Positions 3,345-62,603 of a stretch of DNA of 64,000 bases are shown in pieces. Source of the stretch: an uncultured Calditrichaceae bacterium (GTDB lineage: Bacteria; Calditrichota; Calditrichia; RBG-13-44-9); the NCBI GenBank assembly GCA_964495805.1, contig CAZBWV010000035.1, forward strand, positions 5,924 to 69,923. Reading direction: 5' to 3'. The notes under the pieces are model-generated. The model searched no databases. It was given only the letters and a program-made list of their open reading frames with translations, and was not told the origin of the DNA. A program made the translations under genes and the position numbers. Within the stretch, counting starts at the first letter, position 1. The number at the start of each line of letters is the position of its first letter.

Positions 3345-4328
3345 ATGATTCGCGAAATTGTGCACAACGGAATTACCGTGGATGAGCATGCCCGGAAAGC
3401 GATTGATCGGAAAATTCAGAAACTGGAAGCCATGCTGGAAAAATTTCAGCCGGATATGGTGAAACTGCGCATGAAGTTAAACAAATTGAACAAGCGGGAA
3501 GAGTACACAGTGGATTTAATCCTGGAACTGCCCAACAAAACACTGCGTGCAAGTAAAAGCGGTGACAAACTTTCTAAGGCGCTGAATGAATCGTTTAACA
3601 GTCTGATTCGAGAGGTAAAAAAGTTTAAAGCCTTCCTGCGACGGGAACCGGATTACAAACGTAAAATCCGTCCCACTTACAAGGAGATGTTATTAAAAAC
3701 AACCACTCCGGAAGAAACCCAGGAACTGTACCTGGACTTCATTGAAAAGAATTTCCAGCGTTTTTACAATTTTGCCTACCGGGAGATTCGGAATCGAATC
3801 TATCAGGGATTACTCAAGCCCGGTGAGCTGATGGTGCAGGATGTGCTGGACGAGGCGATCCTGAAAATTTCCGAAGAAGTCGAGCCCAATTTCGATGAGA
3901 AACAGGTGCGGAAACGGGTGTATCAAGCCATAGAGACAATTATCAAACGGAAGGTCAAGGAAGTTCGTTTCCGTCGGGTACCTTTGGAGAAAACGGTGGA
4001 AATTCACGATCTGGATACCGAATTGTACGAATACTATCAACCGGATGATGTGGTAAAGGTGGAGGATGTCATTCCCGATCCGACTTCTCCTGAGCCGGAA
4101 GACTGGTACGAAGAAGAAGAAATTGAAGAAACAGTGGACCGGGTGATCTCCCTGTTGCCGAACCGCTGGCGGCAGGCACTTCAACTGGTGGAAATGGAAG
4201 GTTTTTCGCCAGAGGAGGTGGCTATGATTCAGGGAGTACCTGCGGAAAAGGTGAAACAGGAAGTGGAAAATGCCAAACAGTTTATACGCGAAAAACTCCA
4301 GGACTACGGATTGAAATGGAATCGGTAG
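3345..4328 (+). CDS. fusion protein of an N-terminal ribosome hibernation promoting factor (HPF/RaiA) domain and a C-terminal ECF-like sigma-70 domain (regions 2 and 4)
   Basis: The first 110 aa or so align to short HPF (GITVDEHARKAIDRKIQKLE...YTVDL...ASKSGDKLSKALNESFNSLIREVKKFK). The C-terminus carries sigma-70 region 2 (LMVQDVLDEAILKI) and region 4 (LPNRWRQALQLVEMEGFSPEEVAMIQGVPAEKVKQEV). A GAGGAGGA SD lies upstream, and it is one continuous frame. Confidence 0.7.
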   Translation: MIREIVHNGITVDEHARKAIDRKIQKLEAMLEKFQPDMVKLRMKLNKLNKREEYTVDLILELPNKTLRASKSGDKLSKALNESFNSLIREVKKFKAFLRREPDYKRKIRPTYKEMLLKTTTPEETQELYLDFIEKNFQRFYNFAYREIRNRIYQGLLKPGELMVQDVLDEAILKISEEVEPNFDEKQVRKRVYQAIETIIKRKVKEVRFRRVPLEKTVEIHDLDTELYEYYQPDDVVKVEDVIPDPTSPEPEDWYEEEEIEETVDRVISLLPNRWRQALQLVEMEGFSPEEVAMIQGVPAEKVKQEVENAKQFIREKLQDYGLKWNR

Positions 4329-7567: not shown

Positions 7568-7675
7568 AATTATAAAAAGTTAACAGATTCCGTTTTGAGC
7601 GAACCTTTCCTCCCTTCAGGAGGTAAATTTACGAAAATATCACGAAAAATGGATGTGCTAAAATAAATTCGACTT

Positions 7676-14354: not shown

Positions 14355-14501
14355 ATGAAGCGTACATATCAGCCCCATAACCGAAAGCGGAAAAATAAAC
14401 ACGGTTTTCGTGCCCGCATGAAAACAAAGAACGGGCGAAAAGTACTGGCGCGCCGTCGGGCGAAAGGACGTCGTCGTTTAACTGTTAGCGATGAATTCTA
14501 A
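14355..14501 (+). CDS. rpmH: 50S ribosomal protein L34
   Basis: [42 protein letters not shown], with a GGAGGA SD 5 nt upstream. Confidence 0.9.
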
Positions 14502-14814
14502 AAAACGGTTCTCCCTGCCCCGCCGGATTATCCTGAAGCGACGAAAAGAAATTGGTCGGGTGTTAAGCGAAGGCCGGAAAATAACCGGTGAGATTTTTAA
14601 CACCTTTATCCTGTCCGATGGAGAAACCGGGGTGGCTTTTCTGGTCAGTCGGCGAATCGGCAATGCGGTTCGCCGAAACCGCATGAAACGACTGCTGCGC
14701 GAAGCGTATCGGTTAAACCGGGAGAAGTTCTCTGGCAAAAAGGTGGTCTTTTACATCAAAAAATTTCATGATGATTTTCACCGGATTGTCAACATCATCC
14801 AAAACGTTGAATAA
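14491..14814 (+). CDS. rnpA: RNase P protein component
   Basis: [13 protein letters not shown]...[21 protein letters not shown]. It overlaps the rpmH stop. Confidence 0.85.
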
Positions 14815-14817
14815 ACC

Positions 14818-15054
14818 ATGAAGCACATCCTGGCATTTATCATTAAGTTGTACCGAAAGCTCATCTCGCCTCTGTTCCCACCATCCTGTCGTTTTTACCC
14901 CACCTGTTCGGAATACTCCGAAGAAGCCATTCTTCGGTTTGGCGTAATTCGGGGAGGGTGGTTGGCTGTCAAGCGAGTGAGCAAGTGTCACCCCTTTCAT
15001 CCGGGAGGGTACGATCCCGTTCCAACATCATTGAAGAGGAAAGAGAATGGATAA
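14818..15054 (+). CDS. yidD: membrane protein insertion efficiency factor YidD
   Basis: [31 protein letters not shown]... Confidence 0.85.
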
Positions 15055-16855
15055 ACGCACATTCATTGGAATTGTTCTAATTATCATCATCACCCTGATG
15101 ATGCCCTTTTACCAGCGCTGGATTATGGGTGACCGGCCCCCACAACAACCGGTACAACAGGCTGTGGCACCGGATAGCCTTGCCGAAACAGAAACTCCGA
15201 TCGATACGGCAATGAACCACCGGATGACGGCTGCTGCGGATACGGCGTTAAGTCAGCCGGTTGAAGAAATGGCAGACACCACCCGGATTGCGCTTCGGGG
15301 GGCGGAACAGGTGAAACGGCTGGTGGTGGAAAACAAATACATCCGGGCGGAGTGGAGCACCGAAGACGGCGGGAATCCGGTTCGGTGGGAACTGAAAAAT
15401 TATGGTTATTATAAAGGTGGGAATGTTAATCTTATCGACCGGAACAGCCTGGATGTCGTGTTCATGAATAAGGATGGCAAGGAAATCCACTTAAACCGGT
15501 TCAATATGTATGCAGATTTTCCGGACCATCAGTCGGTGAATCTGACCGAATCCGGAGATTCGGCGTTTGTGTTTCAGTTTTATTTGCCCGTACGAAACGG
15601 AAAAATTGTGAAGACCATTCGCTTTTATCCCGATAAATACTCCGTGGATGTGGAGGTCCGTTTCGAAAATCTGCGCGATTACGTCATTAATCGGAAATAC
15701 GGATTGGCCTGGAAGAACGGGCTGCCTCCCACCGAAGAAAACATTCGGGACGACCTGAATTACAGTCGGGCGTTTGTTTACATGGCCGAAGAGCTGGAAG
15801 GGTTCGATGCCAATGATAAATACAAAGAGGAAAGTTTTAAGGGTCGAGTGGATTGGGTGGCAGTACGAACCAAGTATTTTCTCAGTGCCATCATTCCACA
15901 GCAACCGGAGCGAACCATTGGCGCCACGCTGGGCGGAGTAAAAACTAAAGAGGACGGGATTGAACACAAACGGTTTACCGCTGCTCTGGAAACCGAATAT
16001 CAACCGGTCGATCAATATTCCGACAATTTTACCGTTTATCTGGGACCGCTGGATTATTACATCCTGAAAAAGTATGGTGTGAACCTTCAGGTGCTGGTGA
16101 TGAACAAAGACTGGTACGAACGGTTATTCCGTCCCATCAGCCTGATTATCATCCCGGCGTTTCAGTTCCTGTACCGATTCATCCCCAATTACGGCTTTGT
16201 GATTATTGTTTTCTCCATTCTGATTAAGCTGATTCTGTATCCGCTCACCAAGAAGAGCTACCAATCCATGAGCGAGATGCAGTACCTGCAGCCCAAGATG
16301 ACCGAATTGCGGGAGAAGTACAAAAATGATCCCCAGCGCCTGAATCGCGAAATGATGAGACTGTACAAAGAGCACGGGGTGAATCCGTTAGGAGGGTGCT
16401 TGCCCACGCTGCTACAGATGCCTTTGCTCTTTGCTTTGTTTATTGTGTTCCGTTCCACTATTCAATTGCGCGGACAGCCTTTTATTGGGTGGATCACCGA
16501 CCTTTCCCGGCCGGACAAATTGCCGCTGGGTGTGCATCTTCCGTTGATCGGGGACAATATTCATGTGCTGCCAATCCTGATGGGATTAACCATGATCTGG
16601 CAGTCCAAAATATCCATGACCGATCCCAAGCAGAAGATGATGGTCTATTTCATGCCCATTTTTATGATATTCATTTTTTATTCGCTACCTTCCGGGTTAA
16701 ACCTGTATTATGCGGTATTCAACCTGTTAAGCATGATTCAGACCCATTACATCAAAAAGAAAATGCATCCTAACGGGGTACCGCCGGTTGCGGAAAAAGC
16801 GCCGGTTCGTTCGAAAAAGGTGGAGCGCGGAGGCACCACCAAAAAGAAGTCGTAA
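15047..16855 (+). CDS. yidC: membrane protein insertase YidC
   Basis: An N-terminal TM helix, a large periplasmic domain, and a C-terminal 5-TM core ([29 protein letters not shown]), in conserved rpmH-rnpA-yidD-yidC synteny. Confidence 0.85.
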
Positions 16856-16864
16856 CCTCAGATC

Positions 16865-18253
16865 ATGAACATTTTCCCGACGGAAGACACCATTGTCGCC
16901 CTTTCCACTCCGGCCGGAAAGGGCGCTCTTGCTATTGTTCGAATGAGCGGGGAGAAAAGTCTGGAGATTGTGAATCAGATGTTCTCCCGGCCGATATCGC
17001 CGAAGGCGCATCGGAAAGCGCATTTTGGTAAAATTGTTCATCCGGAGAGCGGGGAGGTGGTGGATGAGGTGGTGGTCACCTTTTTTCGGGCACCTCACTC
17101 CTATACGGGCGAACACGTGGTGGAGATTTCCTGCCACAACAATTTTTTAATTGTAGATCAAATCATTCGGCTGGCTATTGCCCGGGGAGCCAGACCGGCG
17201 CGGCCCGGAGAGTTTACCGAACGGGCATTTTTAAACCACAAGCTGGACCTGGCTCAGGCCGAAGCTGTAGCCAGTTTAATCGATTCCAGAACCCGATTGG
17301 GTGTGCGCACTTCCCTGCGCCAGTTGGAAGGAGGACTCTCCCGAAAAATCCACCGGCTCAAAGAGCAACTGATGAACATATTGGCCCTGGTGGAAGTTAG
17401 CCTGGATTTTAACGAAGAAGAGATGGAGGTCTATCGTCCGGATGAGCTGGAGCAAGCGGCACAAAAAGTGGTGAAAGAGCTGGAGCGGTTGTTAAGTAGC
17501 TATTCCCTGGGACGATTGTTAAACGAAGGATTGCGGCTGGTATTACTGGGTAAGCCCAATGTGGGAAAGTCCAGTTTACTCAACCATCTGTTGCAGCACG
17601 AACGGGCCATTGTGAGCGAAATCCCTGGCACCACCCGGGATTACATTGAGGAGACGGTGGAGATTGAGGGAATCCCGGTTCAGGTGGTGGACACGGCCGG
17701 GGTGCGGGAAACACGCGATCCCGTGGAAGAGGCGGGAGTAAAACGAGCGCTGGAACATGCCCGCACCGCGGATATCGTGCTGGCCATGTTCGATGCCCAC
17801 AGCGAATTGGATAAGGACGATCGGCGGTTACTGGAATTGTTGCAGGAGTTGAGAAATTCGGGTACCATAATTCTGGTGTGCAACAAAATAGATCTGGGTT
17901 GTCATCCGGGCACCCTGGAACAGTTGTCCCGGCTGAAACGTTTGATGGTGAGAATATCTGCTTTAACGGGCGAAGGAGTGGCGGAATTGCGTCAACGGAT
18001 TAAGCAGGCGGTAGTAGCGGGTGAGGTGGGGGAGGATGAACTGCTTTTAACCAGCGCACGGCATCGGGTAGCGGTGGAAAAAGCCCGGGAAGCACTGCTT
18101 TCCTTCATCCGGGGGCTTCGGCTGAAAGCCGATGAGGTCATTCTGGCCACCGATTTACGCAGTGCACTGGATTATCTGGGGGAAGTGGTGGGCGAGACCA
18201 CCACGGAAGATATCTTAAATCACATATTCGGCCAATTTTGCATTGGCAAATAG
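16865..18253 (+). CDS. mnmE: tRNA modification GTPase MnmE
   Basis: TIVALSTPAGKGALAIVRMSG, the G domain GKPNVGKSSLLN, and a C-terminal CIGK. Confidence 0.9.
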   Translation: MNIFPTEDTIVALSTPAGKGALAIVRMSGEKSLEIVNQMFSRPISPKAHRKAHFGKIVHPESGEVVDEVVVTFFRAPHSYTGEHVVEISCHNNFLIVDQIIRLAIARGARPARPGEFTERAFLNHKLDLAQAEAVASLIDSRTRLGVRTSLRQLEGGLSRKIHRLKEQLMNILALVEVSLDFNEEEMEVYRPDELEQAAQKVVKELERLLSSYSLGRLLNEGLRLVLLGKPNVGKSSLLNHLLQHERAIVSEIPGTTRDYIEETVEIEGIPVQVVDTAGVRETRDPVEEAGVKRALEHARTADIVLAMFDAHSELDKDDRRLLELLQELRNSGTIILVCNKIDLGCHPGTLEQLSRLKRLMVRISALTGEGVAELRQRIKQAVVAGEVGEDELLLTSARHRVAVEKAREALLSFIRGLRLKADEVILATDLRSALDYLGEVVGETTTEDILNHIFGQFCIGK

Positions 18254-18265
18254 ATCGTTTGGCAG

Positions 18266-20206
18266 GTGGTAAGAACAACAGTCAGAAGGTTTCACGTGAA
18301 ACACAAGGGGAACATTCGGGAGTTTGATGTGGTGGTCGCCGGCGGGGGTCACGCCGGTATTGAGGCGGCACTGGCCGCAGCACGGCTGGGTATGCGCACC
18401 GCCCTGGTCTCCCTGCGCATCGACACCATCGGTAAAATGTCCTGTAATCCCGCCATTGGCGGATTGGCCAAGGGACATCTGGTGCGCGAAATCGATGCAC
18501 TGGGAGGCGAGATGGCCAAACTGATCGATCGCACCGGAATTCATTTTAAAATTCTCAATCGCTCCAAAGGTCCTGCGGTGTGGTCGCCACGCGCCCAGGC
18601 CGACCGACAGGCGTATGCCCGCGCCGCCCAGCAGGTGGTGCTGAACCAACCCGGTCTGAAAGTCATCCAGGCTGCGGTTACCGGACTGCAGGTGAAAAAC
18701 GGGAAAGTGACTGCAGCGGTGCTGGACGATGGCACCCGACTCCCCTGTCGGGCGCTCATCCTGACCTGTGGGACGTTTTTAAACGGCAAAATTTTTATCG
18801 GATTGAGTGAACTGGCCAGCGGTCGTGCGGGAGAACCACCGGTACGCGGATTAACCGAAGCGCTGGTGGATTTGGGGTTTGAAGCGGGACGGTTGAAAAC
18901 CGGTACCCCTCCCCGGGTACATCGGGATTCCATCGATTATTCGAAGGTCATTGAACAAAAACCGGATCGTCCACCCGAACCGTTTTCATTTCAAACAGAA
19001 TCCATTAACCGCCGCCAGCTTAGTTGCTATATCACCCACACCAATCCTCATACCCACGATTTTCTTCGGTTGGGACTGGATCGGTCACCGCTATACACGG
19101 GCATGATCAAAGGCGTCGGTCCCCGTTACTGTCCTTCTATCGAGGACAAAATTGTGAGATTTGCGGACAAAGAACGACATCAGCTGTTTCTGGAACCGGA
19201 AGGGTTCGACAACGAAGAAGTCTATGTTAATGGGTTTGCCACCAGTTTACCGGAGGATGTGCAGATACGCTCCCTGCATTCGGTTCCGGGGCTTGAAAAA
19301 GCCAAAATCATTCGTCTGGGATATGCCATTGAGTACGATTTTTTCCCCTCTTATCAGATTCGCCATACCATGGAGACCCGGCTGGTGGAGGGGCTTTATT
19401 TTGCCGGGCAAATAAATGGTACCTCCGGGTATGAGGAGGCGGCCGCCCAGGGATTGATGGCGGGAATCAACGCTGCGTTGAAAATCAAAGGCGAGCCCCC
19501 GTTGATTCTGGATCGTTCTCAGGCTTACATCGGGGTGTTAATTGACGATTTGATCAACAAAACCATCCTGGAGCCCTACCGCATGTTTACTTCCCGGGCG
19601 GAGTTTCGGCTATTGTTACGGCACGACAATGCGGATTTACGGCTGATGGAGATTGGCTACCATATTGGCCTGCTTCCTGAGCGCGCATACCAGAGGATGG
19701 TGGAAAAGCGGGAGCGGATTCACCGTTTATTCGAAGAAATCGATCGGCACAGCGTGTCTCCGGAGCAGTTTAATGCCTATGCGGAAGAAGTGGGGACTGC
19801 CCCCATTCATCAAACCCTTCCCTTGAAGCAGGTGTTGAAACGTCCGGAGGTGAAATTAAGCGAAATGTTAAAAATGTTGGGAATAACCGATGAATACGGG
19901 AAGGATGAATTGATCCATGTGGAATTTTTGACCAAGTATGAGGGGTACATTCGTCGGCAGGAGGAGCTGGTGGAGAAGTTTAAGAAGATGGAGCATCGGG
20001 AGATACCGGAGGATTTTGATTATCTGGCCATACCGTCTCTTTCGGCGGAGAGCCGGGAGAAGTTGATGCAGGTGCGTCCGCGTTCGTTGGGGCAGGCCAG
20101 CCGCATTTCCGGGGTGCGACACAGCGACATCACCATTCTGATGATTTATCTGGACAAATACGAGCGCACTCGCCGGGACGTTTCACGTGAAACAGTTGAC
20201 GGTTAA
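18266..20206 (+). CDS. mnmG: tRNA uridine 5-carboxymethylaminomethyl modification enzyme MnmG (GidA)
   Basis: FDVVVAGGGHAGIEAALAAARLGMRTAL is the FAD site, and the protein is full-length GidA-like. A GTG start at 18266 or 18296 is possible; the latter lies inside the palindrome. Confidence 0.9.
   Translation: MVRTTVRRFHVKHKGNIREFDVVVAGGGHAGIEAALAAARLGMRTALVSLRIDTIGKMSCNPAIGGLAKGHLVREIDALGGEMAKLIDRTGIHFKILNRSKGPAVWSPRAQADRQAYARAAQQVVLNQPGLKVIQAAVTGLQVKNGKVTAAVLDDGTRLPCRALILTCGTFLNGKIFIGLSELASGRAGEPPVRGLTEALVDLGFEAGRLKTGTPPRVHRDSIDYSKVIEQKPDRPPEPFSFQTESINRRQLSCYITHTNPHTHDFLRLGLDRSPLYTGMIKGVGPRYCPSIEDKIVRFADKERHQLFLEPEGFDNEEVYVNGFATSLPEDVQIRSLHSVPGLEKAKIIRLGYAIEYDFFPSYQIRHTMETRLVEGLYFAGQINGTSGYEEAAAQGLMAGINAALKIKGEPPLILDRSQAYIGVLIDDLINKTILEPYRMFTSRAEFRLLLRHDNADLRLMEIGYHIGLLPERAYQRMVEKRERIHRLFEEIDRHSVSPEQFNAYAEEVGTAPIHQTLPLKQVLKRPEVKLSEMLKMLGITDEYGKDELIHVEFLTKYEGYIRRQEELVEKFKKMEHREIPEDFDYLAIPSLSAESREKLMQVRPRSLGQASRISGVRHSDITILMIYLDKYERTRRDVSRETVDG
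18289..18302. repeat. perfect 14-bp palindrome GTTTCACGTGAAAC, copy 1 (at the mnmG 5' end)
   Basis: Read directly from the sequence. Identical copies occur at 20180 and 20220. Confidence 0.9.
20180..20193. repeat. perfect 14-bp palindrome GTTTCACGTGAAAC, copy 2 (11 nt before the mnmG stop)
   Basis: Read directly from the sequence. Confidence 0.9.
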
Positions 20207-20217
20207 ATAAAAGACGG

Positions 20218-20904
20218 GTGTTTCACGTGAAACATGGAAAATCCACATACGCGAACCAATGGATACGGCTGCAGGAGCTGTTTCCGGAATTTTCTTCCGA
20301 CCAGATGGAAAAACTCAATCGATATGCGGGTATGCTGGTGGAGTGGAATCGCCGGGTTCATCTGATTTCCCGCGCGGATGAACAGCGAGTGTGGACCCAT
20401 CACCTTCTGCCCAGTTTAATTGTCCTGAAGTTGACCGAACTCCCCGCAGGGGGCTCCCTGCTTGACCTGGGGAGCGGTGGAGGGCTGCCCGGTCTGCCCC
20501 TAAAAATGGCACGACCTGACCTGTCGGTGGTGCTGGTAGAATCGGTGCGCAAAAAGGCGTTGTTCTTAAAGCGGGTGGTGGAAGAACTGGGACTAACCGG
20601 GATCGCGGTTATCAACGAACGGCTGGAACCGGGTCGAGAGGCACGTTGGGGGCTGGGTGAGAAAATAGATGTGGTCACCGCACGCGCGGTGGCGGAAGTG
20701 AATGTGTTGTGGGAGCTAAGTGTGCGACTGCTACGACCGGGAGGGGCTTTAATAACCTGGAAGGGAGATCAGGAGGAAAATGAGTTTCGGCAATTTCAAA
20801 AGCAGTTGTCACTTTCCGGCGAAATCCTTGCCGTTCCTTCCAGATGGCACGATTTCTCCCCGCGCTTCCCGCATATGCGCATTTTTCGCCTGGAAAAATC
20901 ATAA
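20218..20904 (+). CDS. rsmG: 16S rRNA (guanine527-N7)-methyltransferase RsmG (GidB)
   Basis: LLDLGSGGGLPGLPLKMARPDLSVVLVESVRKKALFLK, with a GTG start. Confidence 0.85.
   Translation: MFHVKHGKSTYANQWIRLQELFPEFSSDQMEKLNRYAGMLVEWNRRVHLISRADEQRVWTHHLLPSLIVLKLTELPAGGSLLDLGSGGGLPGLPLKMARPDLSVVLVESVRKKALFLKRVVEELGLTGIAVINERLEPGREARWGLGEKIDVVTARAVAEVNVLWELSVRLLRPGGALITWKGDQEENEFRQFQKQLSLSGEILAVPSRWHDFSPRFPHMRIFRLEKS
20220..20233. repeat. perfect 14-bp palindrome GTTTCACGTGAAAC, copy 3 (at the rsmG start)
   Basis: Read directly from the sequence. Its centre is 40 bp from copy 2. Confidence 0.9.
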
Positions 20905-21070: not shown

Positions 21071-22057
21071 ATGACAAAAATCGTTTCTTTTATCATTCAA
21101 AAAGGAGGGTGCGGAAAAACCACCACGACTGCGAACACAGCAGGGTACCTGGCCCAACAGGGCTATCGGGTGTTGTGCGTGGATATGGATCCACAGGGAA
21201 ACCTCACCCAACATTTAGGTTATAATAATGAGGCTTTAGATCTCACGATTTTGCATCTTTTTCAGAAAAAAGCAGAGTTTGACGAAGTGGTGTTGAAACG
21301 CAGTGAGAACCTGCATTTGCTTCCCAACAATCTGGAAACGGCAGGCGCAGAACTGATTCTGTACCATTCCTTTTCCCGTGAATTCTTACTCCGGGATGTG
21401 CTGGCGCCAATAACGCATAGATATGATTTTATATTAATTGACTGTCCCCCCGCACTGGGACTCTTTTCAGTCAATGCACTGGCTGCTTCCACAGATTTTG
21501 TGCTGGTGGTGGCTCCTGAATTTTTCCCCATGCGTGCCATTAAACCTTTATACGAAACATACCGAATGGTAAAAGAAAAGCTCAACCATACCTTGCAATT
21601 TAATGGTGTATTAATGACTATGTGCGATTTCCGCACCAATCATAGCCGGGAAGTACTGAAAATCCTGAAACGAAATTTCCCTCATAAATTGTACAATGCT
21701 TTTATCCGCCAGAATGTCACATTAAAAGAAGCTTCAGCTTACGGCCAAACCATTTTTGAATATGCACCTAATTCCATCGGAGCATTTGATTACCAGAATT
21801 TTGTGGAAGAGTTTCTTTTGGATAATCATCAAAACAAGCTCAAGCGGGAATACTATCAGCGCCGGTTTGATTCCCTGCCTCCGGAAGAAAAGCAACAAAT
21901 CCTGGAATTCGCGAAAAAGAACCTTTCCACTTACAGTCAGACGCTGCTGGAGCGCGTGGATATCAGTCGTGTGTTGAAGGAAGCACTCATCATAGAACGC
22001 AATAAAATTATCGAAAGGCTTTTTCCTTATCGAAAGTCTCAACATGTGGAAACGTGA
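21071..22057 (+). CDS. ParA/Soj-family P-loop ATPase with an extension of about 80 aa at the C-terminus
   Basis: The deviant Walker A IQKGGCGKTTTTAN and VLCVDMDPQGNL. No parB follows it. Confidence 0.75.
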   Translation: MTKIVSFIIQKGGCGKTTTTANTAGYLAQQGYRVLCVDMDPQGNLTQHLGYNNEALDLTILHLFQKKAEFDEVVLKRSENLHLLPNNLETAGAELILYHSFSREFLLRDVLAPITHRYDFILIDCPPALGLFSVNALAASTDFVLVVAPEFFPMRAIKPLYETYRMVKEKLNHTLQFNGVLMTMCDFRTNHSREVLKILKRNFPHKLYNAFIRQNVTLKEASAYGQTIFEYAPNSIGAFDYQNFVEEFLLDNHQNKLKREYYQRRFDSLPPEEKQQILEFAKKNLSTYSQTLLERVDISRVLKEALIIERNKIIERLFPYRKSQHVET

Positions 22058-22881
22058 TGCGATATTCCTGTCTCCTTGTTTTGCTGATATTTGCAATGCA
22101 AGGGATGGCGGCTTTTGAGATTTCAGGAATGAACGTATTTAATAGCGGAAATCCAGCCCGGTCATGGGCGGGGACGAACTCAAACTCCGGTTTCATTAAC
22201 AATCCTGCCGGAATAACCAATGGACGTTTCTGGAGCGGAATCTCTTATTTTAAACCCTACAATCTGAATTCTCTGTATCAGGCATCCCTGGTGGTGCGTA
22301 TGCCTGGCTGGAAAAACTTAAATGGTGGAGTGGCTCTGAATAGTTTTGGAAATCCCCTATATCGGGAAACCATGATGTGTTTGAATGTATCTCGTTCTTT
22401 TTTCAGGAATACCTTTTATTTTGGGGTGAATTTGCGAAATTATTTTCTGACTATACAAAATTACGGTGGATTCTATAGTTGGGGAATTGATGTGGGAGCA
22501 GGATATTTTCTTTATGACCCTTTGTTTATATCGTTTTCGGTGATCAATCTCAACCAGCCCGTTTTGAATGGTTATCGGCACCAGATTCCAACCCTTGCCA
22601 GTCTGGGGATCGCTTTTCGACCGGGAGACCGTGTGGAATTTACCGCCGCAGTGCAAAAAGAGGAGGCCTTTCCGGTGAACGTGCTGGTGGGTTTCAGTTT
22701 CTGGATTGATCGGAATTTTATGGTCCAGAGCGGATTCCAGAGCTATCCCGGAACCCCTTCGGTGGGACTGATACTTGGCAAGGGAAACGTCCGATTTCAC
22801 TATGCACTTCAGTATCACTTTCAACTGGGGGAAACCCACTTCTGGGGAATATCGTTCGGGGGAGGAAATTTTGGACACTAA
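22054..22881 (+). CDS. putative outer-membrane beta-barrel protein (possibly PorP/SprF-like)
   Basis: A signal peptide and alternating hydrophobic/aromatic beta-strand pattern rich in G/N/Y/F. No catalytic motif was seen. Confidence 0.4.
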   Translation: MMRYSCLLVLLIFAMQGMAAFEISGMNVFNSGNPARSWAGTNSNSGFINNPAGITNGRFWSGISYFKPYNLNSLYQASLVVRMPGWKNLNGGVALNSFGNPLYRETMMCLNVSRSFFRNTFYFGVNLRNYFLTIQNYGGFYSWGIDVGAGYFLYDPLFISFSVINLNQPVLNGYRHQIPTLASLGIAFRPGDRVEFTAAVQKEEAFPVNVLVGFSFWIDRNFMVQSGFQSYPGTPSVGLILGKGNVRFHYALQYHFQLGETHFWGISFGGGNFGH

Positions 22882-42892: not shown

Positions 42893-45574
42893 TTATTTAA
42901 TGAGAACCATTTTCTTCACCAATTTCCGATTTCCGTAAGTTAATTGGTAATAGTAAATTCCGCTGGGGATGGAACGGTGGGAGGCATCCCACTGAATTTG
43001 GTATTCCCCGGGCGGTAACTTTCGGTGTATCAACGTTTCTACCTGTCGCCCCAATATATCAAAAATTTGCAGGGTAACCAAATCGAAATTCCCGGTGGAG
43101 CCAGGGGAACCGGGAATGGAGAAAGTGATGGTAGTAACCGGATTAAACGGGTTGGGGAAGTTTTGCTTCAGCCGAAATTTTAAGGGAACGGGCGGAGAAT
43201 CAGCCGTCAGATCGTTGGGGATGTTCACGTTCAATTGCACGGGGATGAGCAGCGTATGCCGGTCCGGATCGTTGCTGGTGAGCAGCAGATGTGCCCGGTA
43301 GCGCCCGGAATTCAGACCAGCGGCGTTTACCTCCAGGGTAATAGTGGTGCTCTGCCCCGGTTCCAGCGTACCGGAGGTGTCATTCACCGTTAACCAGGGG
43401 CAATCAGCGGTGGGAATTCCGACATCGGCACTGATAATCTGCTTGCGGGTGTTGTCGGCAAAACGCAGGTATTGCCCGTCGAAAGTGATGCCACCGTCAG
43501 AGTTCCCCGGTGTAATCATCGATTGCACCACGGAGTCTCCCGCCAGTTGCCACAGCTGGTAGGTGATGGCATACCACAGATGGCTGCCATCCCAGCCGAG
43601 TCCCTGGCACCAACCGGCTGGCACCGGGATGGTGTCCGTTACCGTGCCAGTGGTATCGAAACGGATAATCAGGCTATCGGAACCTCCACGGTATAGGTCG
43701 GTGCCGTCGCAGGTTAATCCTTCGCCGTTAGGTAGAGGGTTGGGAATGCTGCATAGAATATCTCCGCTTAGCGGGTGGATTTTCCGAATCTGGTCTCCGG
43801 CGAAATCAAAAAACCACAGGTAATATCCGTCGTGGGCTAAACCGCCGGGAAACGTGCTGGCTGTGGGAAACGTTCGGAGCACCTGTCCTGTGACCGGATC
43901 GAGCTTTATGATTTTCTGATTGGTGACATCGGCAATCCAGATTCCCAGATTACCCCAGGTCAGTCCGTTGACCTCCTCCGTTCCGGCGGGAAAGGGCAGT
44001 TCAAAAACACGGAAAGGAAGAGAGTCCCGCTGGGTACCGGAGTCAAGATGGCGGGTTGAAATGGAGGTCTGGCGGTCAACCAATTTCCACTTCAGAGTTT
44101 TGCAACCGGGTGTTGCCGTGTTGGTGATGGTGAATGTGGCACTTGCTGTTCCGGATGTGCCCACGTACATATCGAAACCGGTGGGAGAGACACCCACCTG
44201 CGCTGCCGGAGCATACTTCAGCAGGCAAAAGTCGTCCCGGCTTCGGCCAGCGACGTACAGAATGTTTTCCGTTTCCACATTCAGGGCGTGGCCCACCTCC
44301 TGCCATCCGGTGGAGCGAAACTGTGCCGACCACTGCAAATTCCCTCCGGAATCGAACTTAACCGTCAGAATATCCGTCCGATTGCTGAGGTTCCCGGTAA
44401 GGTACACATTTCCCAGATCGTCAACAGAGAGGGCTTCGGGGGCATCATCTCCAAAATTTTCGTAACGGGCTTCCCAGAGCAGATTTCCTGAGGGATCGTA
44501 TTGAACCACAGCGATATCCTTTCCGGTACCGGACATGGAGTAGGCGGTGCCAGCCACCAGGATGTTTCCGTTTCCGTCCAGAGTTAACAGATAGGCTTCG
44601 TTCATGGAATCGGGAGCAGCATAGAGGCGCACCCAGAGGGTATCGCCGGTTGCCGCATCATAACAGATGGTGCAAAATGCGGTATATACGGCGCCACCTG
44701 TGAATGCCCGTCCGGCTACGTACACATGGCCATTGTTGTCTGCAACCACAGCGTAAGGGTAATCCGTGTTGTGTGCGGGACCATCGTAGATGGCAACCCA
44801 TTGTTGCTGACCGGCGGAATCGTACTTCACCGTGGCAAAGTTAATGGAGCCGGTTGGTGCTGTTCCCACAACGTATAAATTTTCCTGAGCATCCCGGGCA
44901 ATGGCAGCAGGCCGGAAGTAATCGGTTGAAGAGGTTGGGTAGCGAGCTGTCCACAATACCTGACCCCGGTGGTTTATTTTCATGGTGCAAAAACTGGTGG
45001 CGTAAGGGATCACGGAACTGTCCTTGCGAGATCCGGTGACGTACACACACCCCTGAGAGCCATACGTCATCATAGGGGTTGTTTTTCCGTTGGATTCGCA
45101 CCACATGCCGGGGATGCGCATCGTCCAGACTGTATCGCCGGTATCCGGGCGGTATTTTAAGACGAAATACCAGGGAGCCTGAGCCGGTGGTGCACCCCAG
45201 CCACTCACATAGACAAACCCCGAATCATCCACCACCAGTCCGTGGGGACGATCGTCCATATTGCCTCCATCGAAACGAAAAGCCCAGAGCGAATCTCCTT
45301 CCGGAGAGAAGCAGGCGGTGAATATGTCTGCATTGCTGGTGCCAGTGACCAAAAACTGACCGGCATCGTTCCGGCACATGTAGTAAGCTTCGTCCGTGCA
45401 TCCGGGACCTCCATTCAAAAAACTCACCCAGGCGGTATCCACCTGAGCGGTTGCCAGGCTAATTAGCAGAAGGGTAAACGCAAAGATTCGGAGTCTGATG
45501 CCGGACTCCTTACGGAATGTTAAGATTTTTGGTGGAATCATGGTTGTTCCTCCGAATTTGGATGAGTGGATCAT
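42893..45574 (-). CDS. large secreted SBBP/beta-propeller repeat protein with a T9SS C-terminal sorting domain
   Basis: Repeats DSGFVYVSGW, NGHVYVAGR and LGNVYLTGN. C-terminus NFPNPFNPVTTITF...GIYYYQL. Confidence 0.7.
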   Translation of the reverse strand: MIHSSKFGGTTMIPPKILTFRKESGIRLRIFAFTLLLISLATAQVDTAWVSFLNGGPGCTDEAYYMCRNDAGQFLVTGTSNADIFTACFSPEGDSLWAFRFDGGNMDDRPHGLVVDDSGFVYVSGWGAPPAQAPWYFVLKYRPDTGDTVWTMRIPGMWCESNGKTTPMMTYGSQGCVYVTGSRKDSSVIPYATSFCTMKINHRGQVLWTARYPTSSTDYFRPAAIARDAQENLYVVGTAPTGSINFATVKYDSAGQQQWVAIYDGPAHNTDYPYAVVADNNGHVYVAGRAFTGGAVYTAFCTICYDAATGDTLWVRLYAAPDSMNEAYLLTLDGNGNILVAGTAYSMSGTGKDIAVVQYDPSGNLLWEARYENFGDDAPEALSVDDLGNVYLTGNLSNRTDILTVKFDSGGNLQWSAQFRSTGWQEVGHALNVETENILYVAGRSRDDFCLLKYAPAAQVGVSPTGFDMYVGTSGTASATFTITNTATPGCKTLKWKLVDRQTSISTRHLDSGTQRDSLPFRVFELPFPAGTEEVNGLTWGNLGIWIADVTNQKIIKLDPVTGQVLRTFPTASTFPGGLAHDGYYLWFFDFAGDQIRKIHPLSGDILCSIPNPLPNGEGLTCDGTDLYRGGSDSLIIRFDTTGTVTDTIPVPAGWCQGLGWDGSHLWYAITYQLWQLAGDSVVQSMITPGNSDGGITFDGQYLRFADNTRKQIISADVGIPTADCPWLTVNDTSGTLEPGQSTTITLEVNAAGLNSGRYRAHLLLTSNDPDRHTLLIPVQLNVNIPNDLTADSPPVPLKFRLKQNFPNPFNPVTTITFSIPGSPGSTGNFDLVTLQIFDILGRQVETLIHRKLPPGEYQIQWDASHRSIPSGIYYYQLTYGNRKLVKKMVLIK

Positions 45575-45615
45575 TCTCCTTTGCCATAAGGGAAAGATGA
45601 GAAAAGGCGATTTAC

Positions 45616-47232
45616 TTACTGGAGCAGAAGCATTTTCCCGGTTCGAATGATCTGGCCCGACTGAAGCCGATAAAAATACACGCCGCTGGAAAGGTTCTCA
45701 CCATTCTGGTTGGTGCCATCCCAGATGATTCGGTGTTCGCCAGGTGGAAACGTTTGCCGAACCAGCGTGCGGACTTTTCTTCCGGTGGCATCGTACACAT
45801 CTAAGCAGATAGGGGCGGTCTTTGCATTGCGAAACAGGATGATTGTGCGCGAATTAAACGGATTGGGATAGTTTGCATGCAGATCGATATTTGCCGGTGC
45901 TGAATGTTTCGGGCGCGATATGTTTGTGATAGAAGAAGGGAGTTTGAGGGCTACCAGATAATGTTGGGGTCCGTTGAAACTGACCCCGCTTACCAGGACG
46001 TCACCGGAGGGATCGATGGCAACACCGTATCCGTCGTTACGATCGGTACCCGGAACGGAGTAGATGGCATCCCATGCCAGCGTACCATCGGGCAAATACT
46101 TCAGGGTGGTAATCCGGTTGACTAAATAATACTGCTCCTTTGTCCAGCCGGTCAGATAAATGTTCCCATCGGCATCCAGTGCCATGTCGTTAATCTTGTT
46201 ATCCTGTGAGAGGGTGTAGTAAAATCGAACCCACACCGTGTCTCCCATGGCGTTATATTTAATGAGGGTTATTTTGGATTGGGAACCCCCTGCCACGTAG
46301 ATCTGGTTGGAATCGTGTACGGCAATTCGTCGGGCGAATTCAGCACCGCCGCCGGACTGATTATAGAGCCGGATCCAGCGGAGTTGCCCGTGACGGTTAA
46401 TTTTGGCTACCGCAATGTCGTATCCGGTAAGGGTCTCCAGGGTAAATCCGGTCACATAAACATTTCCGGCGTCATCAACAGCTACGTCGGCGGCTTCGTC
46501 GGAATAGTTCGCGCTACCATTGTGGGCGAAAACCCAGCGGAAGTTGCCGGAAGAGTCGTATTTTACCACAGTAATATCGCGTTGGGTCACAGCCCCGGTG
46601 GTATAGCCCGCAATCAGTACATTTTCGGAATCGTCCAGTGTTACCCGGTAAGGAATGTCCAGACCGTTCCCTGAACCGTTATAATGGGCAATCCATTTTA
46701 CGGTACCGTCGGATTGGTACTTCACCACACTGAAATCGCTACCAGTTTGCGGATGGCTGGAATAGCCGATGGCGTAGGCATTGCCGGATGGTGCCGGTTT
46801 CAGATCGTAAACCGCCTTCATACCTTCTGCCGGAGTGTGCTTCCAGCAAAATTGCCCGGTGGAGTCCAGTTGAATCACCGTCCAGCCATCGCTATTCTGG
46901 GTGGAAGAAAAACCACCTACCCACACACGACCCTGTGAATCCGCTGCCACTACCCGTGCAACATCCATCCCGTTTACCAGCGAGTCGTTGTAGGTGTACT
47001 CCCATGCCAGTCCGCCCTGTGGGGTAAATTGAGCCACTTTTAAATCCTCTTGTGTGGTTTCGTCGATAAAACCGCATAAGATGAGATTTCCGGCGGGCGA
47101 GACCGCCAGCTGGCGAATGTAGTCGTCGTATATCTGACCATTTACCTGGTTGCTCCATTCCGGTGTAACCTGGCACAGCACAATCCCGAACCACAGCCAT
47201 CCGATGATTCCCCAAAAATATGCTGCTCTCAT
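45616..47232 (-). CDS. secreted SBBP/beta-propeller repeat protein with a T9SS C-terminal sorting domain
   Basis: Repeats DAGNVYVTGFT, DADGNIYLTGWT and DPSGDVLVSGVS. C-terminus NYPNPFNSRTIILF...GVYFYRL. An AAAGGGGA SD lies before ATG 47232. Confidence 0.7.
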   Translation of the reverse strand: MRAAYFWGIIGWLWFGIVLCQVTPEWSNQVNGQIYDDYIRQLAVSPAGNLILCGFIDETTQEDLKVAQFTPQGGLAWEYTYNDSLVNGMDVARVVAADSQGRVWVGGFSSTQNSDGWTVIQLDSTGQFCWKHTPAEGMKAVYDLKPAPSGNAYAIGYSSHPQTGSDFSVVKYQSDGTVKWIAHYNGSGNGLDIPYRVTLDDSENVLIAGYTTGAVTQRDITVVKYDSSGNFRWVFAHNGSANYSDEAADVAVDDAGNVYVTGFTLETLTGYDIAVAKINRHGQLRWIRLYNQSGGGAEFARRIAVHDSNQIYVAGGSQSKITLIKYNAMGDTVWVRFYYTLSQDNKINDMALDADGNIYLTGWTKEQYYLVNRITTLKYLPDGTLAWDAIYSVPGTDRNDGYGVAIDPSGDVLVSGVSFNGPQHYLVALKLPSSITNISRPKHSAPANIDLHANYPNPFNSRTIILFRNAKTAPICLDVYDATGRKVRTLVRQTFPPGEHRIIWDGTNQNGENLSSGVYFYRLQSGQIIRTGKMLLLQ

Positions 47233-47332
47233 GTTTCCCCTTTCTTTTTTGTATCTAATGAACAATTCATTGCGTTAAAAATTGGCGCGGAAAATATTTG
47301 AGAGATTGCAGCGCACGGGTTTCGGAATCGCC

Positions 47333-47950
47333 TCAGGGAGATTTGTGTTGGGCAGACGCACGGTGAATTTGCTGGTAAATATTGCGAATTTCCCGGAAGA
47401 TGTGCGTTGTGGTGCAGTTCAGTACACTGGCCATGGTCCGGTCGGAGTCGCCGCGCGCGGCATGCTGTAAGATGCGTTGCTGAAAAGCGGACATTCGGAG
47501 CCGGAAGGACGGTTGAGATGCTTGTAGAAGAATCGTCCGGGCAAGGGAAGGATTCAGGGGGGAACCTCCCTGAAGAATTGTGCGAAGCACCTTCCGGGTT
47601 TTTTCCGGAGCCGATTTTTGAATCACAAATCCCACCGCTCCCGCCCGAATGGCTTCCAGAATGTCCGGACTTTCTTCCCGCGCCGCACAAAGCACAACTT
47701 GCATATTCGGGTGGTACCGAATTAATTGGCGGATGCTTTCGGGGTTATTCAGACCCGACAATCCGTTTCCAATGAGCACCAACCGCACCCGATGAAATCT
47801 GGGATCAGCAAATGCTTCTTCGAAAGAGGCGTAGGTATGTACGGGCGCAAAGAAGGGTTCATTTTCTAAAAGCAGTACTAAACCATCCCGTACGAACCGG
47901 TTGTTGTGGATAATAGCCGTGGGAATGGGTATGGCTCCGGAATGGTGCAT
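47333..47950 (-). CDS. LuxR/FixJ-family transcriptional regulator with a degenerate (aspartate-less) receiver domain
   Basis: A C-terminal LuxR HTH (QQRILQHAARGDSDRTMASVL...THIFREIRNIY). The REC-like N-terminus has HNN where the acidic pair normally sits, and G/N at the phospho-Asp position. A GGAGG SD lies before ATG 47950. Confidence 0.7.
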   Translation of the reverse strand: MHHSGAIPIPTAIIHNNRFVRDGLVLLLENEPFFAPVHTYASFEEAFADPRFHRVRLVLIGNGLSGLNNPESIRQLIRYHPNMQVVLCAAREESPDILEAIRAGAVGFVIQKSAPEKTRKVLRTILQGGSPLNPSLARTILLQASQPSFRLRMSAFQQRILQHAARGDSDRTMASVLNCTTTHIFREIRNIYQQIHRASAQHKSP

Positions 47951-48020
47951 GGAGTCGCCTCCTATCCTGAGTTTAAGATTTTTCGGCGTGCGGTTGCGTG
48001 GCTTATCGTAATGCATTGCG

Positions 48021-49262
48021 TTAGCGCATCAGCACCATTTTTCGGATTACCGTGTGTTTCCCGATTTGTACCCGGCAGAGATAAACCCCTCCGGCGACAG
48101 GTCGGTGGTTACTGTCGGTTCCATCCCATTCAATGATGTGTTGACCGGCTGGTAAAATGGCTTCGATCAATGTTTTAATTCGTTCCCCGGCGATGGTGTA
48201 CACCTGGGCGCGTACCATACCCTGTGCGGGCAACACCAACTCCATGTGCGTGGTGGGATTAAACGGATTGGGATAGTTCGACGAAAGAGAGAATTGGTCG
48301 GGTGAGCCGGATGGGTGCGAAAGAGCGGTGAGCGGTGCGTATCTGAGTACAGTAGAGTAGTAGCCAATTACATATCCGTTTGTGGACGATGTGAAATACA
48401 GAGACGTTAGCACATTGTTGGTCATTCCCCACGCAACAGTTTCCCAGGACTGTCCGCCGTCTGTTGTATGAAGAATCAGCCCCATTATCGATCCGATTAC
48501 CCAACCTTCCTGTGAGTTGATAAAATGGACTCCCATCATTGAGGTGACATACGGAATGGGTTGAGTGACCCAATCTTTTCCGTTTTCGGTATGGACAATC
48601 AGACCATTATCTCCCACAGCCCAGCCGACCAGCGTGTCCAGCATAAAAATATCGAAATATTCGGTCGGTGGGAAGTTCTGATCGGCTATCCAGCTGCCGT
48701 TCTTGTAATGGAAAATTCCCTCACCACCGCAAAGCCAGCCTTCCCGGGAAGAGTTGGGGAAACACATTCCACTAAGGTACGAGCTGGTGGGGGTAGTCAT
48801 TCCATAAATGCTATCTCCCACAATCATCGCCATGGAACCATCACGTCCGCACACAAAACATGTGTCACTGGACGGAATGCATTCCACTTTACTCAGAAAT
48901 GCACCATATTGCCCGATGATTGGCCAGCTTGCTCCGCCGTCTGTCGTACGATAGATGTACCCGCCAGCCCCCACAGCATATCCGTTCATCTCGTCCCACA
49001 TGTCAATTCCACTGGTGCGGTAACTAATTAAAGTGGACTGCCAGGTTTGTCCGCCATCTGTGGTGTGGTAGATGTAGGTACTATTGCTACGGGTAACCCA
49101 GGCCTGGTTATCCCCCACACAGACAATATCCGAGAGGTAGGCTCCGTAGCCAGTAACTGCCTGCATGTTGCTGGTTAAGTTCTGCCAGACCGGATTCTGT
49201 GCCCGAAGGGGTAGAAAACCGGTACTCAGTGCAAAGATAAGCAGGATGTAAAAGTGTTTCAT
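48021..49262 (-). CDS. BNR/Ycf48-like repeat protein with a T9SS C-terminal sorting domain
   Basis: Repeated TTDGGQTW, TTDGGASW and TTDGGQSW motifs. C-terminus NYPNPFNPTTHMEL...GVYLCRV. Confidence 0.75.
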   Translation of the reverse strand: MKHFYILLIFALSTGFLPLRAQNPVWQNLTSNMQAVTGYGAYLSDIVCVGDNQAWVTRSNSTYIYHTTDGGQTWQSTLISYRTSGIDMWDEMNGYAVGAGGYIYRTTDGGASWPIIGQYGAFLSKVECIPSSDTCFVCGRDGSMAMIVGDSIYGMTTPTSSYLSGMCFPNSSREGWLCGGEGIFHYKNGSWIADQNFPPTEYFDIFMLDTLVGWAVGDNGLIVHTENGKDWVTQPIPYVTSMMGVHFINSQEGWVIGSIMGLILHTTDGGQSWETVAWGMTNNVLTSLYFTSSTNGYVIGYYSTVLRYAPLTALSHPSGSPDQFSLSSNYPNPFNPTTHMELVLPAQGMVRAQVYTIAGERIKTLIEAILPAGQHIIEWDGTDSNHRPVAGGVYLCRVQIGKHTVIRKMVLMR

Positions 49263-62244: not shown

Positions 62245-62603
62245 GAGCATCTCCTTTTTTGTTGAATGAAATTTACAGAATAGAGGGAGCTGAATCCACC
62301 GGATACTGGTTTGGGGGAGAAAAATAGGAACGAATTCGCTGTTTTCTTTATGGAAATCATCATACCGTTTCAGATGTGCTGGCAAAGAGGATATGGTAGT
62401 TGCTTAACTAAACATCATTTTACCACACCGAGTACTCTTATCTTTCCAATTTATTTTTCCATTTGTATTCCCTCACTTGTGGTCGAAAATTAAGGATGAA
62501 GGGAAAGGGAGAGCACAGGCAGGTGAATTCCTGGCAGGGAAGAAACACAACCTCCATCTCCGGGAATTCATCAGGACATCGTGATTTAACAGGAAGGTGC
62601 GGG

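Follow-up and report, generated by a model that had tools for sequence, protein, structure and literature searches.

The parS sites of bacterial chromosomes, which resemble centromeres and serve ParABS as loading sites, were reportedly surveyed by Livny, Yamaichi and Waldor in 2007. They include the Spo0J sites of Bacillus subtilis, with the consensus TGTTTCACGTGAAACA / tGTTNCACGTGAAACa. The consensus parS TGTTTCAC-GTGAAACA has been used in ParB biochemistry and crystallography (bioRxiv 10.1101/724823) and in genome scans that refer to Livny 2007 (PMC10197239), and the importance of the parS core has also been described (PMC4368675). Pseudomonas aeruginosa carries several high-affinity palindromes, parS1 to parS4, within a few kb, some intragenic and some intergenic, and these sites are functionally redundant (PMC4368675). 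In P. aeruginosa the sequence is TGTTCCACGTGGAACA, positions 5 and 12 being C/G, and the cluster adjoins dnaA/oriC in a genome in which parAB is present and has been studied. Noc-binding sites (NBS) are scattered over the chromosome and kept out of the terminus region. In Firmicutes these 16-bp palindromes (TATTTCCCGGGAAATA) are likewise recognised by a CTPase of the ParB family (bioRxiv 10.1101/724823), and their half-site, TATTTCCC, differs from parS TGTTTCAC at positions 2, 7, 10 and 15 of the 16-mer.

Three palindromes around mnmG in an uncultured Calditrichota genome are, judging from their sequence and setting, very probably chromosomal parS sites. This assignment is supported by identity to the consensus, by gene context and by cross-phylum conservation of both position and sequence. 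One of the palindromes is identical to the B. subtilis consensus and the other two match it at 15 of 16 positions, and degeneracy falls at the same positions (1, 5, 12 and 16). As with chromosomal parS elsewhere, the copies in the 64 kb are few and clustered in the gid/par neighbourhood, with a ParA/Soj gene adjoining, and their arrangement within a few kb, partly intragenic and partly intergenic, resembles that of parS1 to parS4 in P. aeruginosa, although they lack the C/G at positions 5 and 12 found there. The locus differs from known ParABS systems in that parB is not beside parA and in that the local ParA has a C-terminal extension of ~75 aa.

Three candidate parS sites around mnmG

The palindromes lie in a co-directional gene run, rpmH-rnpA-yidC-mnmE-mnmG-rsmG-parA, within the window, which is the whole 64-kb stretch of DNA that was analysed. 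On the plus strand, rpmH, rnpA and yidC (14355..16855; Pfam Ribonuclease_P and 60KD_IMP, with Ribosomal_L34 from a gene call) are followed by mnmE, encoding the tRNA modification GTPase (16865..18253; Pfam TrmE_N, MnmE_helical and MMR_HSR1), mnmG/gidA (18296..20206; TIGR00136 at 847 bits and Pfam GIDA, with a gene call of 636 aa), rsmG/gidB (20227..20904; TIGR00138, Pfam GidB and gene calls) and a gene for a ParA/Soj-type ATPase of 328 aa (21071..22057; Pfam AAA_31 and CbiA).

The 14-mer GTTTCACGTGAAAC occurs in exactly three exact copies in the window, at 18289-18302, 20180-20193 and 20220-20233, all within 1.95 kb. These positions reproduce those of a preliminary description of this DNA, which had reported three identical palindromes and no fourth: no further GTTTCACGTGAAAC-like 14-mer at up to two mismatches and no further 16-mer match at up to three mismatches was present in the 64 kb, nor was a parS copy found in the 10 kb that precede the window. 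The chance of such a tripling had been called negligible, and a base-composition model gives the same picture, with 2.4e-4 exact copies expected in 64 kb and a probability of ~2e-12 for at least three. With their flanking bases, copies 1, 2 and 3 read GGTTTCACGTGAAACA, CGTTTCACGTGAAACA and TGTTTCACGTGAAACA. The third, parS-3 (20219..20234), is a perfect 16-bp palindrome with no mismatch to consensus parS, while parS-1 (18288..18303) and parS-2 (20179..20194) each carry a single mismatch at the outermost base 1. The CACGTG core is intact in all three, and none is assigned a strand.

parS-1 is held in the mnmE-mnmG spacer of 42 bp. The mnmG reading frame is open from 18266, and public gene calls start at GTG 18296 in the centre of this copy, in keeping with the earlier suggestion that a GTG within a palindrome at the mnmG 5' end might serve as the start; this GTG, inside parS-1, is likely to be the start codon. 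parS-2 lies in frame in the non-conserved C-terminal tail of mnmG (..VSRETVDG*), where it is read as VSRET, and ends 10 nt ahead of the stop codon at 20204, as its reported place just before the stop implied. parS-3 overlaps the rsmG start and begins 40 bp after the start of copy 2, so that both the overlap and the spacing given previously were recovered. The rsmG reading frame is open from 20218, and gene calls disagree between GTG 20227, inside parS-3, and ATG 20305. The peptide FHVKH shared by the two gene starts had been ascribed to the palindrome, which does itself encode FHVKH. Both FHVKH and VSRET, like the GTG starts, would be by-products of parS placement.

In a near-identical NCBI assembly the core of copy 2 is CAAGTG, and in near-identical assemblies copy 3 has a terminal substitution, which indicates that not every copy is strictly constrained; such substituted copies fit the known redundancy of parS sites. 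The window differs from public records by ~0.4% in sequence.

Conservation of the sites at mnmG boundaries

The sites were compared across 80 mnmG loci from other genomes, mostly of Bacteroidota, Ignavibacteria, Chlorobiaceae, KSB1 and Calditrichota. In these loci, parS-like sites were concentrated at the 5' end of mnmG (45 in 14.4 kb, ~3 per kb) and were also present at its 3' end (19 in 23.7 kb), compared with two in 137 kb inside mnmG and 17 in 805 kb (0.02 per kb) in other flanking sequence, which amounts to a ~150-fold enrichment at the 5' end. A parS-like site at an mnmG boundary was found in 44 of the 80 loci, and loci from KSB1, Ignavibacteria and Chlorobiaceae have sites at both ends of the gene.

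The preliminary description had named absence from the orthologous junctions of relatives as evidence against a conserved element, and the sites proved to be conserved at those junctions. The locus L002, from a related Calditrichota metagenome-assembled genome (MAG) with 78% identity in MnmG, shares the three-site layout, with a spacing of 39 bp, and includes an orthologous copy of parS-2. Sites orthologous to parS-1 are present in L001, L002, L004 and L071, and these loci together with L007 keep a site at the same gene boundaries. In alignments of orthologous junctions nothing but the 16-mer forms an invariant block, the flanks being unalignable, and in one alignment (A2) this block is parS-3. 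Variation among 83 orthologous sites is limited to positions 1, 5, 12 and 16, with both TGTTCCACGTGGAACA, the P. aeruginosa parS, and TGTTCCACGTGAAACA being common. As an independent check only, the parS motif was ~200-fold above chance in 80 independent metagenome ParA loci, among the matches listed, whose ParAs are 32 to 41% identical to the local ParA.

Helical phasing of the 40-bp pair was considered and rejected: the spacing of four helical turns that had been pointed out is not conserved, neighbouring site pairs in relatives being 28 to 71 bp apart.

Operator and RNA explanations

The palindromes had been proposed to be operator sites for a dimeric regulator, in which case a dedicated transcription factor recognising an E-box-like CACGTG core would control mnmG and rsmG. 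The 5' ends of both genes are overlapped by sites, and in P. aeruginosa ParB binding to parS3 and parS4, both intergenic, represses the promoters next to them (PMC5521831), which makes a local transcriptional side effect of ParB binding plausible. However, the match to the ParB site covers the full 16-mer and not the CACGTG core alone, a promoter scan found no sigma-70-like promoter overlapping any copy, the spacers are at most 42 bp in a co-directional gene run, and one copy is part of the coding sequence at the mnmG 3' end. The same site is also kept across several phyla, which is unexpected for a lineage-specific regulator, and dedicated operators are very unlikely. The part of the proposal that stands is the dimeric DNA-binding protein, which is likely; since the 16-mer is consensus parS, this binder would be ParB, a CTPase clamp of chromosome segregation and SMC loading, and not a regulator of mnmG and rsmG.

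Still less probable is an action of the palindromes as RNA, either as hairpins at gene boundaries, which had also been suggested, or by base pairing between copies 2 and 3 that would hide the rsmG start and link rsmG translation to that of mnmG. These two copies can form a 15-bp stem (-24.8 kcal/mol, z -3.55) whose loop contains the mnmG stop codon and whose 3' arm contains the GTG start of rsmG, and a comparable pair 39 bp apart occurs in L002 and L078. Such pairing is automatic for any two identical palindromes, however, and the spacing of pairs varies between 28 and 71 bp, with a single site at the junction in most relatives. The boundary hairpins did not hold up, single sites forming stems of 5 to 7 bp with energies as in shuffled sequence (z -0.26 to -1.46), with no terminator-like T-run at the sites in a terminator scan and no Rfam family matching them. 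Across relatives the sequence is kept and the pairing is not: 25 of the 83 sites are non-Watson-Crick at positions 5 and 12 (20 C/A and 5 T/G).

ParA and the location of parB

The parS reading implies a ParB, and the gene adjoining the sites encodes a ParA whose residues 1-249 match the Soj/ParA structures 1wcv, 6iub and 8ray and which is 38% identical to Ignavibacteria Soj. Its C-terminal extension is conserved in L002. The Ignavibacteria locus L007 runs mnmG-parS-rsmG-parA-parB. Where Ignavibacteria have parB, in the slot following parA, both this locus and L002 encode an unrelated signal-peptide protein of 274 aa. No parB was detected in the 64-kb window by a six-frame scan for GERRxRA/ENLQR motifs or by a hidden Markov model (HMM) of nine ParBs from the comparison loci (best E-value 2.4), and the 10 kb preceding the window likewise yielded no ParB. 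A homologue search with Ignavibacteria ParB found no named Calditrichota ParB among the matches listed (at least 120), which were only Ignavibacteria- and Zixibacteria-like, and a search of the literature on Caldithrix ParB or parS found nothing.

Of the 44 comparison loci that have an mnmG parS, 43 similarly lack a gene for ParB within ~6 kb on either side. We infer that ParB binds at the three sites and that its gene is located elsewhere in the source genome, presumably as in those 43 loci. It is improbable to about the same degree as the RNA reading that Calditrichota instead lost parB from the parA-parB slot and that a non-canonical partner, such as the 75-aa extension of ParA, reads or bridges parS in place of a relocated canonical ParB.

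Relation to the replication origin

Chromosomal parS typically lies by the gidA, gidB and parAB genes in the origin-proximal domain, and the gene neighbourhood here suggests that the sites probably mark such a domain. Unlike the P. aeruginosa cluster, they do not adjoin dnaA: the window contains no dnaA gene, no DnaA-box cluster and no clear skew minimum. Least probable of all is that the copies form a small repeat family, as the preliminary description had considered, dispersed and of REP or MITE type, or that they are DnaA boxes specific to this species at oriC: Caldithrix abyssi does have a REP-like 18-nt palindrome, AACCGTTnnAACGGTT (PMC5317091), and TGTTTCACG was proposed as a DnaA box beside gidA in Bradyrhizobiaceae in the Ori-Finder paper (PMC2275245), but the C. 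abyssi palindrome has another sequence and does not match the window significantly, the unit common to the three copies is only 15 nt (GTTTCACGTGAAACA) with no shared sequence in the flanks and no copies in the 64 kb beyond these three within 2 kb, the motif is unlike TTATCCACA and is documented as parS, and neither a DnaA-box cluster nor an AT-rich unwinding region lies beside the sites.

Proposed function and significance

If the palindromes act as parS, established knowledge of ParABS suggests that a ParB dimer would read each 16-bp palindrome through its helix-turn-helix domains, then bind CTP, close as a clamp and slide off onto the flanking DNA. Repeated loading at each site would build up a partition complex extending for several kb over mnmE-mnmG-rsmG-parA, and a ParA/Soj ATPase would move this complex; here this motor partner of the ParB-parS complex is presumed to be the product of the gene at 21071-22057. 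The partition complex would in turn recruit the SMC condensin, by which the chromosome arms would be organised, and the presence of three sites may provide redundancy and faster loading. The sites appear to have been placed in short spacers and at the mnmG and rsmG termini, which are not conserved, since such places tolerate a fixed 16-mer.

A parS at mnmG is a real but well-known kind of site, and the understanding of ParABS is unchanged by its presence here. Its value lies in annotation, as the sites would mark the region of partition-complex formation and SMC loading in an uncultured Calditrichota genome, and parS would explain the odd common N-terminus (F)HVKH and the GTG starts called for mnmG and rsmG. 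Given that a boundary parS occurs at more than half of the mnmG loci compared, nearly always with no parB close by, mnmG-flanking parS could serve as a marker of the origin domain in fragmented MAGs.

Recurrence and identity of the palindrome

The 64-kb window contains three exact copies of the 14-mer GTTTCACGTGAAAC, starting at 18289, 20180 and 20220, with no further match at up to two mismatches. The coordinates, the 40 bp start-to-start spacing of the second and third copies and the gene-relative positions reported in the preliminary description were all correct on rechecking, as was its claim of non-chance recurrence: a base-composition model predicts 2.4e-4 exact copies per 64 kb against the three seen (probability of at least three, ~2e-12), and the triple recurrence is real and far beyond chance. 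Extended to 16 bases, the copies read GGTTTCACGTGAAACA (copy 1, 18288-18303), CGTTTCACGTGAAACA (copy 2, 20179-20194) and TGTTTCACGTGAAACA (copy 3, 20219-20234), and the window holds no other 16-mer site at up to three mismatches. Only 15 nt are repeated, and the sequences around the copies are unrelated to one another.

Copy 3 equals, base for base, the consensus of parS, the ParB loading site of the ParABS chromosome segregation system, and copies 1 and 2 deviate from it at the outermost base only. The sequence TGTTTCAC-GTGAAACA is given as consensus parS in a study of ParB/Noc specificity (bioRxiv 10.1101/724823) and is the parS search pattern of a gut-bacteria Hi-C study citing Livny et al. 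2007 (PMC10197239); among the matches listed, papers containing the exact consensus string are mostly on ParB and parS. The parS identity of such sites is already known, and the palindromes are read as parS sites, probably of the origin domain, the textbook explanation. The earlier proposal that a dimeric DNA-binding protein reads the sites had the right kind of element in view but did not recognise it as parS, read by ParB.

Gene neighbourhood and start codons

Pfam and NCBIfam assign the genes around the sites as rpmH (14355-14501, + strand), rnpA (14491-14814), yidC (15047-16855), mnmE (16865-18253), mnmG (ORF 18266 to 20206), rsmG (ORF 20218 to 20904) and a ParA/Soj-type ATPase (21071-22057); next come a 274-aa signal-peptide protein (22054-22881) that matches no family in either database, an M23 peptidase and SSB. 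Near this cluster the genes change strand only once, at ~13.2 to 13.5 kb, where rnfC on one side is encoded on the minus strand and a metallophosphoesterase gene and rpmH on the other side are encoded on the plus strand.

Near-identical public contigs (JBPNUJ010000085.1 of GCA_054029175.1 and one ENA contig, 99.4 to 99.8% nucleotide identity) carry gene calls starting mnmG at GTG 18296 and rsmG at GTG 20227, each being the GTG of the palindrome's CACGTG core; a second gene caller starts rsmG at ATG 20305. GTG 18296 is a plausible mnmG start, as suggested in the preliminary description, since it follows AGAAGG at a spacing of 7 nt and is the only start codon ahead of the conserved FDVVVAGGGHAG strand. 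The frame from the palindrome GTG is kept in a Calditrichia MAG (L001), whereas in L002 (Calditrichota), L004 (KSB1) and L071 (Chlorobiaceae) the start of mnmG is an ATG located 12 to 21 nt past the palindrome, indicating that the palindrome is a DNA element that sometimes supplies a start codon. The peptides FHVKH and VSRET are by-products of it, upholding the earlier view that FHVKH arises from the palindrome only.

Equivalents of window 20179-20234 in near-identical assemblies (L081, 9109-9164; L083, 26-81) carry substitutions within the parS copies. The core of copy 2 has a C>A change in the NCBI MAG (CAAGTG) and copy 3 terminates in G in the NCBI and JGI contigs, with copy 1 unchanged. 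These 2 changes in 48 bp, compared with 0.42% overall, may mean that constraint on these redundant sites is relaxed, or may be errors of assembly.

Elsewhere in the window, a 327-aa protein (3345-4328, +) has an unusual fusion of an N-terminal Ribosomal_S30AE domain (hibernation factor) to a C-terminal PhyR_sigma-like/sigma-70 region 4. The 519-aa ThyX (1-1530, +) is truncated by the window start, its ORF call beginning at the internal GTG 43; the gene is complete in locus L086 (16038-17597), and the Thy1 domain, matched in two stretches, may be present twice. C-terminal sorting domains of type IX secretion (Por_Secre_tail) occur on an Exo_endo_phos protein and on several large proteins of the beta-propeller/SBBP kind (42893-49262, -; 62463-63806, +), which makes type IX cargo prominent in this Calditrichota genome.

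Conservation across phyla

In 80 mnmG loci from one-genome-per-species contigs, 16-mers within two mismatches of the consensus were scanned. The loci were found by six peptide patterns, one of which, FHVKHKGN, is palindrome-encoded and may favour the closest relatives, the other five being independent. The closest MnmG proteins were those of L001 (88% identity) and L002 (78%), which places the genome in Calditrichota. The 5' end of mnmG (-150 to +30) held 45 sites in 35 loci (14.4 kb scanned), and 19 sites in 16 loci fell no more than 150 bp from its 3' end, compared with 2 sites in 137 kb of mnmG interior and 17 in 805 kb of remaining sequence. A parS-like site was present at an mnmG boundary in 44/80 loci, mostly from Bacteroidota, Ignavibacteria, Chlorobiaceae, KSB1 and Calditrichota, and its placement was very consistent across the sampled loci of these groups.

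The three-site layout recurs in L002 (sites at 5976, 7872 and 7911; spacing 39 bp), and L004, L007 (Ignavibacteria) and L071 have one site per mnmG end, so that comparison of orthologous junctions finds the site kept at mnmG boundaries. In junction alignments the 15- to 16-mer is the sole invariant block, the flanks being effectively unalignable. The mnmG ORF of L002 (5923-7887) is interrupted at 7617, with protein similarity extending to 7887, probably owing to a frameshift or assembly error in the record.

Variation among the 83 sites is confined to positions 1, 5, 12 and 16, which is the known parS degeneracy; common forms are TGTTCCACGTGGAACA (22), the P. aeruginosa parS (PMC4368675), TGTTTCACGTGAAACA (17) and the asymmetric TGTTCCACGTGAAACA (11). 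This pattern, including the asymmetric form, indicates that sequence rather than pairing is conserved. A second, independent sample, of 80 metagenome ParA loci, had 31 such sites in 590 kb, against ~0.16 predicted by counting the 16-mers that lie within two mismatches.

Alternative readings

Pairing of copies 2 and 3 in the mRNA could couple rsmG translation to mnmG. The two copies (20180-20234) can form a 15-bp stem (-24.8 kcal/mol, z -3.55) whose loop holds the mnmG stop codon and whose 3' arm holds the rsmG GTG start, and a pair 39 bp apart also occurs in L002 and L078. Such a stem is, however, the automatic outcome of two identical palindromes, and pair spacing in relatives ranges from 28 to 71 bp, so that coupling is at most a possible by-product. 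Operators of a dedicated transcription factor are an unlikely reading, given that the full 16-mer is a ParB site common to several phyla, one copy lies within coding sequence and no promoter-like element was found overlapping any copy. RNA hairpins at gene boundaries, also raised in the preliminary description, are similarly unlikely: single sites fold no better than shuffled sequence, non-complementary position 5/12 combinations are common among the 83 sites, and Rfam gave no match.

The Ori-Finder paper proposed TGTTTCACG as the species-specific DnaA box of Bradyrhizobiaceae, based on the palindrome TGTTTCACGTGAAACA beside gidA in predicted oriC regions (PMC2275245); that palindrome is the consensus parS. 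A DnaA-box reading is unsupported here, with no DnaA-box cluster, adjacent AT-rich unwinding element or dnaA gene in the window. Even with the rpmH-rnpA-yidC-mnmE-mnmG-rsmG-parA cluster present, the full 64 kb has neither dnaA nor a DnaA-box cluster, and scans of the window did not locate the replication origin. With a unit of just 15 nt and three copies in the 64 kb, all of them local, the small repeat family once suggested, whether REP- or MITE-like, is excluded; the REP-like palindrome of Caldithrix abyssi is a different sequence (PMC5317091).

Partition genes and proposed function

No parB was found in the window by motif scan or by an HMM of nine ParBs, nor in the 10 kb upstream. The gene order in the Ignavibacteria locus L007 is mnmG-parS-rsmG-parA-parB-M23 peptidase, and in the window and L002 the position of parB is occupied by the 274-aa protein without family match. 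A search with Ignavibacteria ParB returned no named Calditrichota ParB among the 120 matches listed. A ParB box was absent from the fetched 6-kb flanks in 43/44 comparison loci carrying parS at mnmG, indicating that a distant parB is the rule in this sample, and the strict conservation of consensus sites within Calditrichota implies a predicted reader with ParB specificity. In the region 21071-22881 (8819-10626 in L002), the 328-aa ParA/Soj-type ATPase has a ~75-aa C-terminal extension without Pfam match, which is kept in L002 (70% identity overall); residues 1-249 of the ATPase match Soj/ParA crystal structures.

By the outline of established ParABS knowledge, ParB dimers would nucleate on parS, bind CTP, close into a clamp and slide to neighbouring DNA, and the partition complex would be moved by ParA-ATP and would load SMC. 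As a single origin-proximal high-affinity parS can suffice (PMC4368675), three sites would give redundancy, which fits a near-identical strain with a core change in copy 2, a terminal change in copy 3 and copy 1 intact. In P. aeruginosa, promoters next to an intergenic parS can be repressed by ParB bound there (PMC5521831), and it is thus conceivable by analogy that expression of mnmG or rsmG is mildly affected, secondary to ParB.

Three non-trivial loose ends are the only ones: in Calditrichota, parB is presumably displaced and ParA is extended, and across the groups sampled parS sits very regularly at the boundaries of mnmG. A parS site in that position might be used to mark the origin domain in MAGs.
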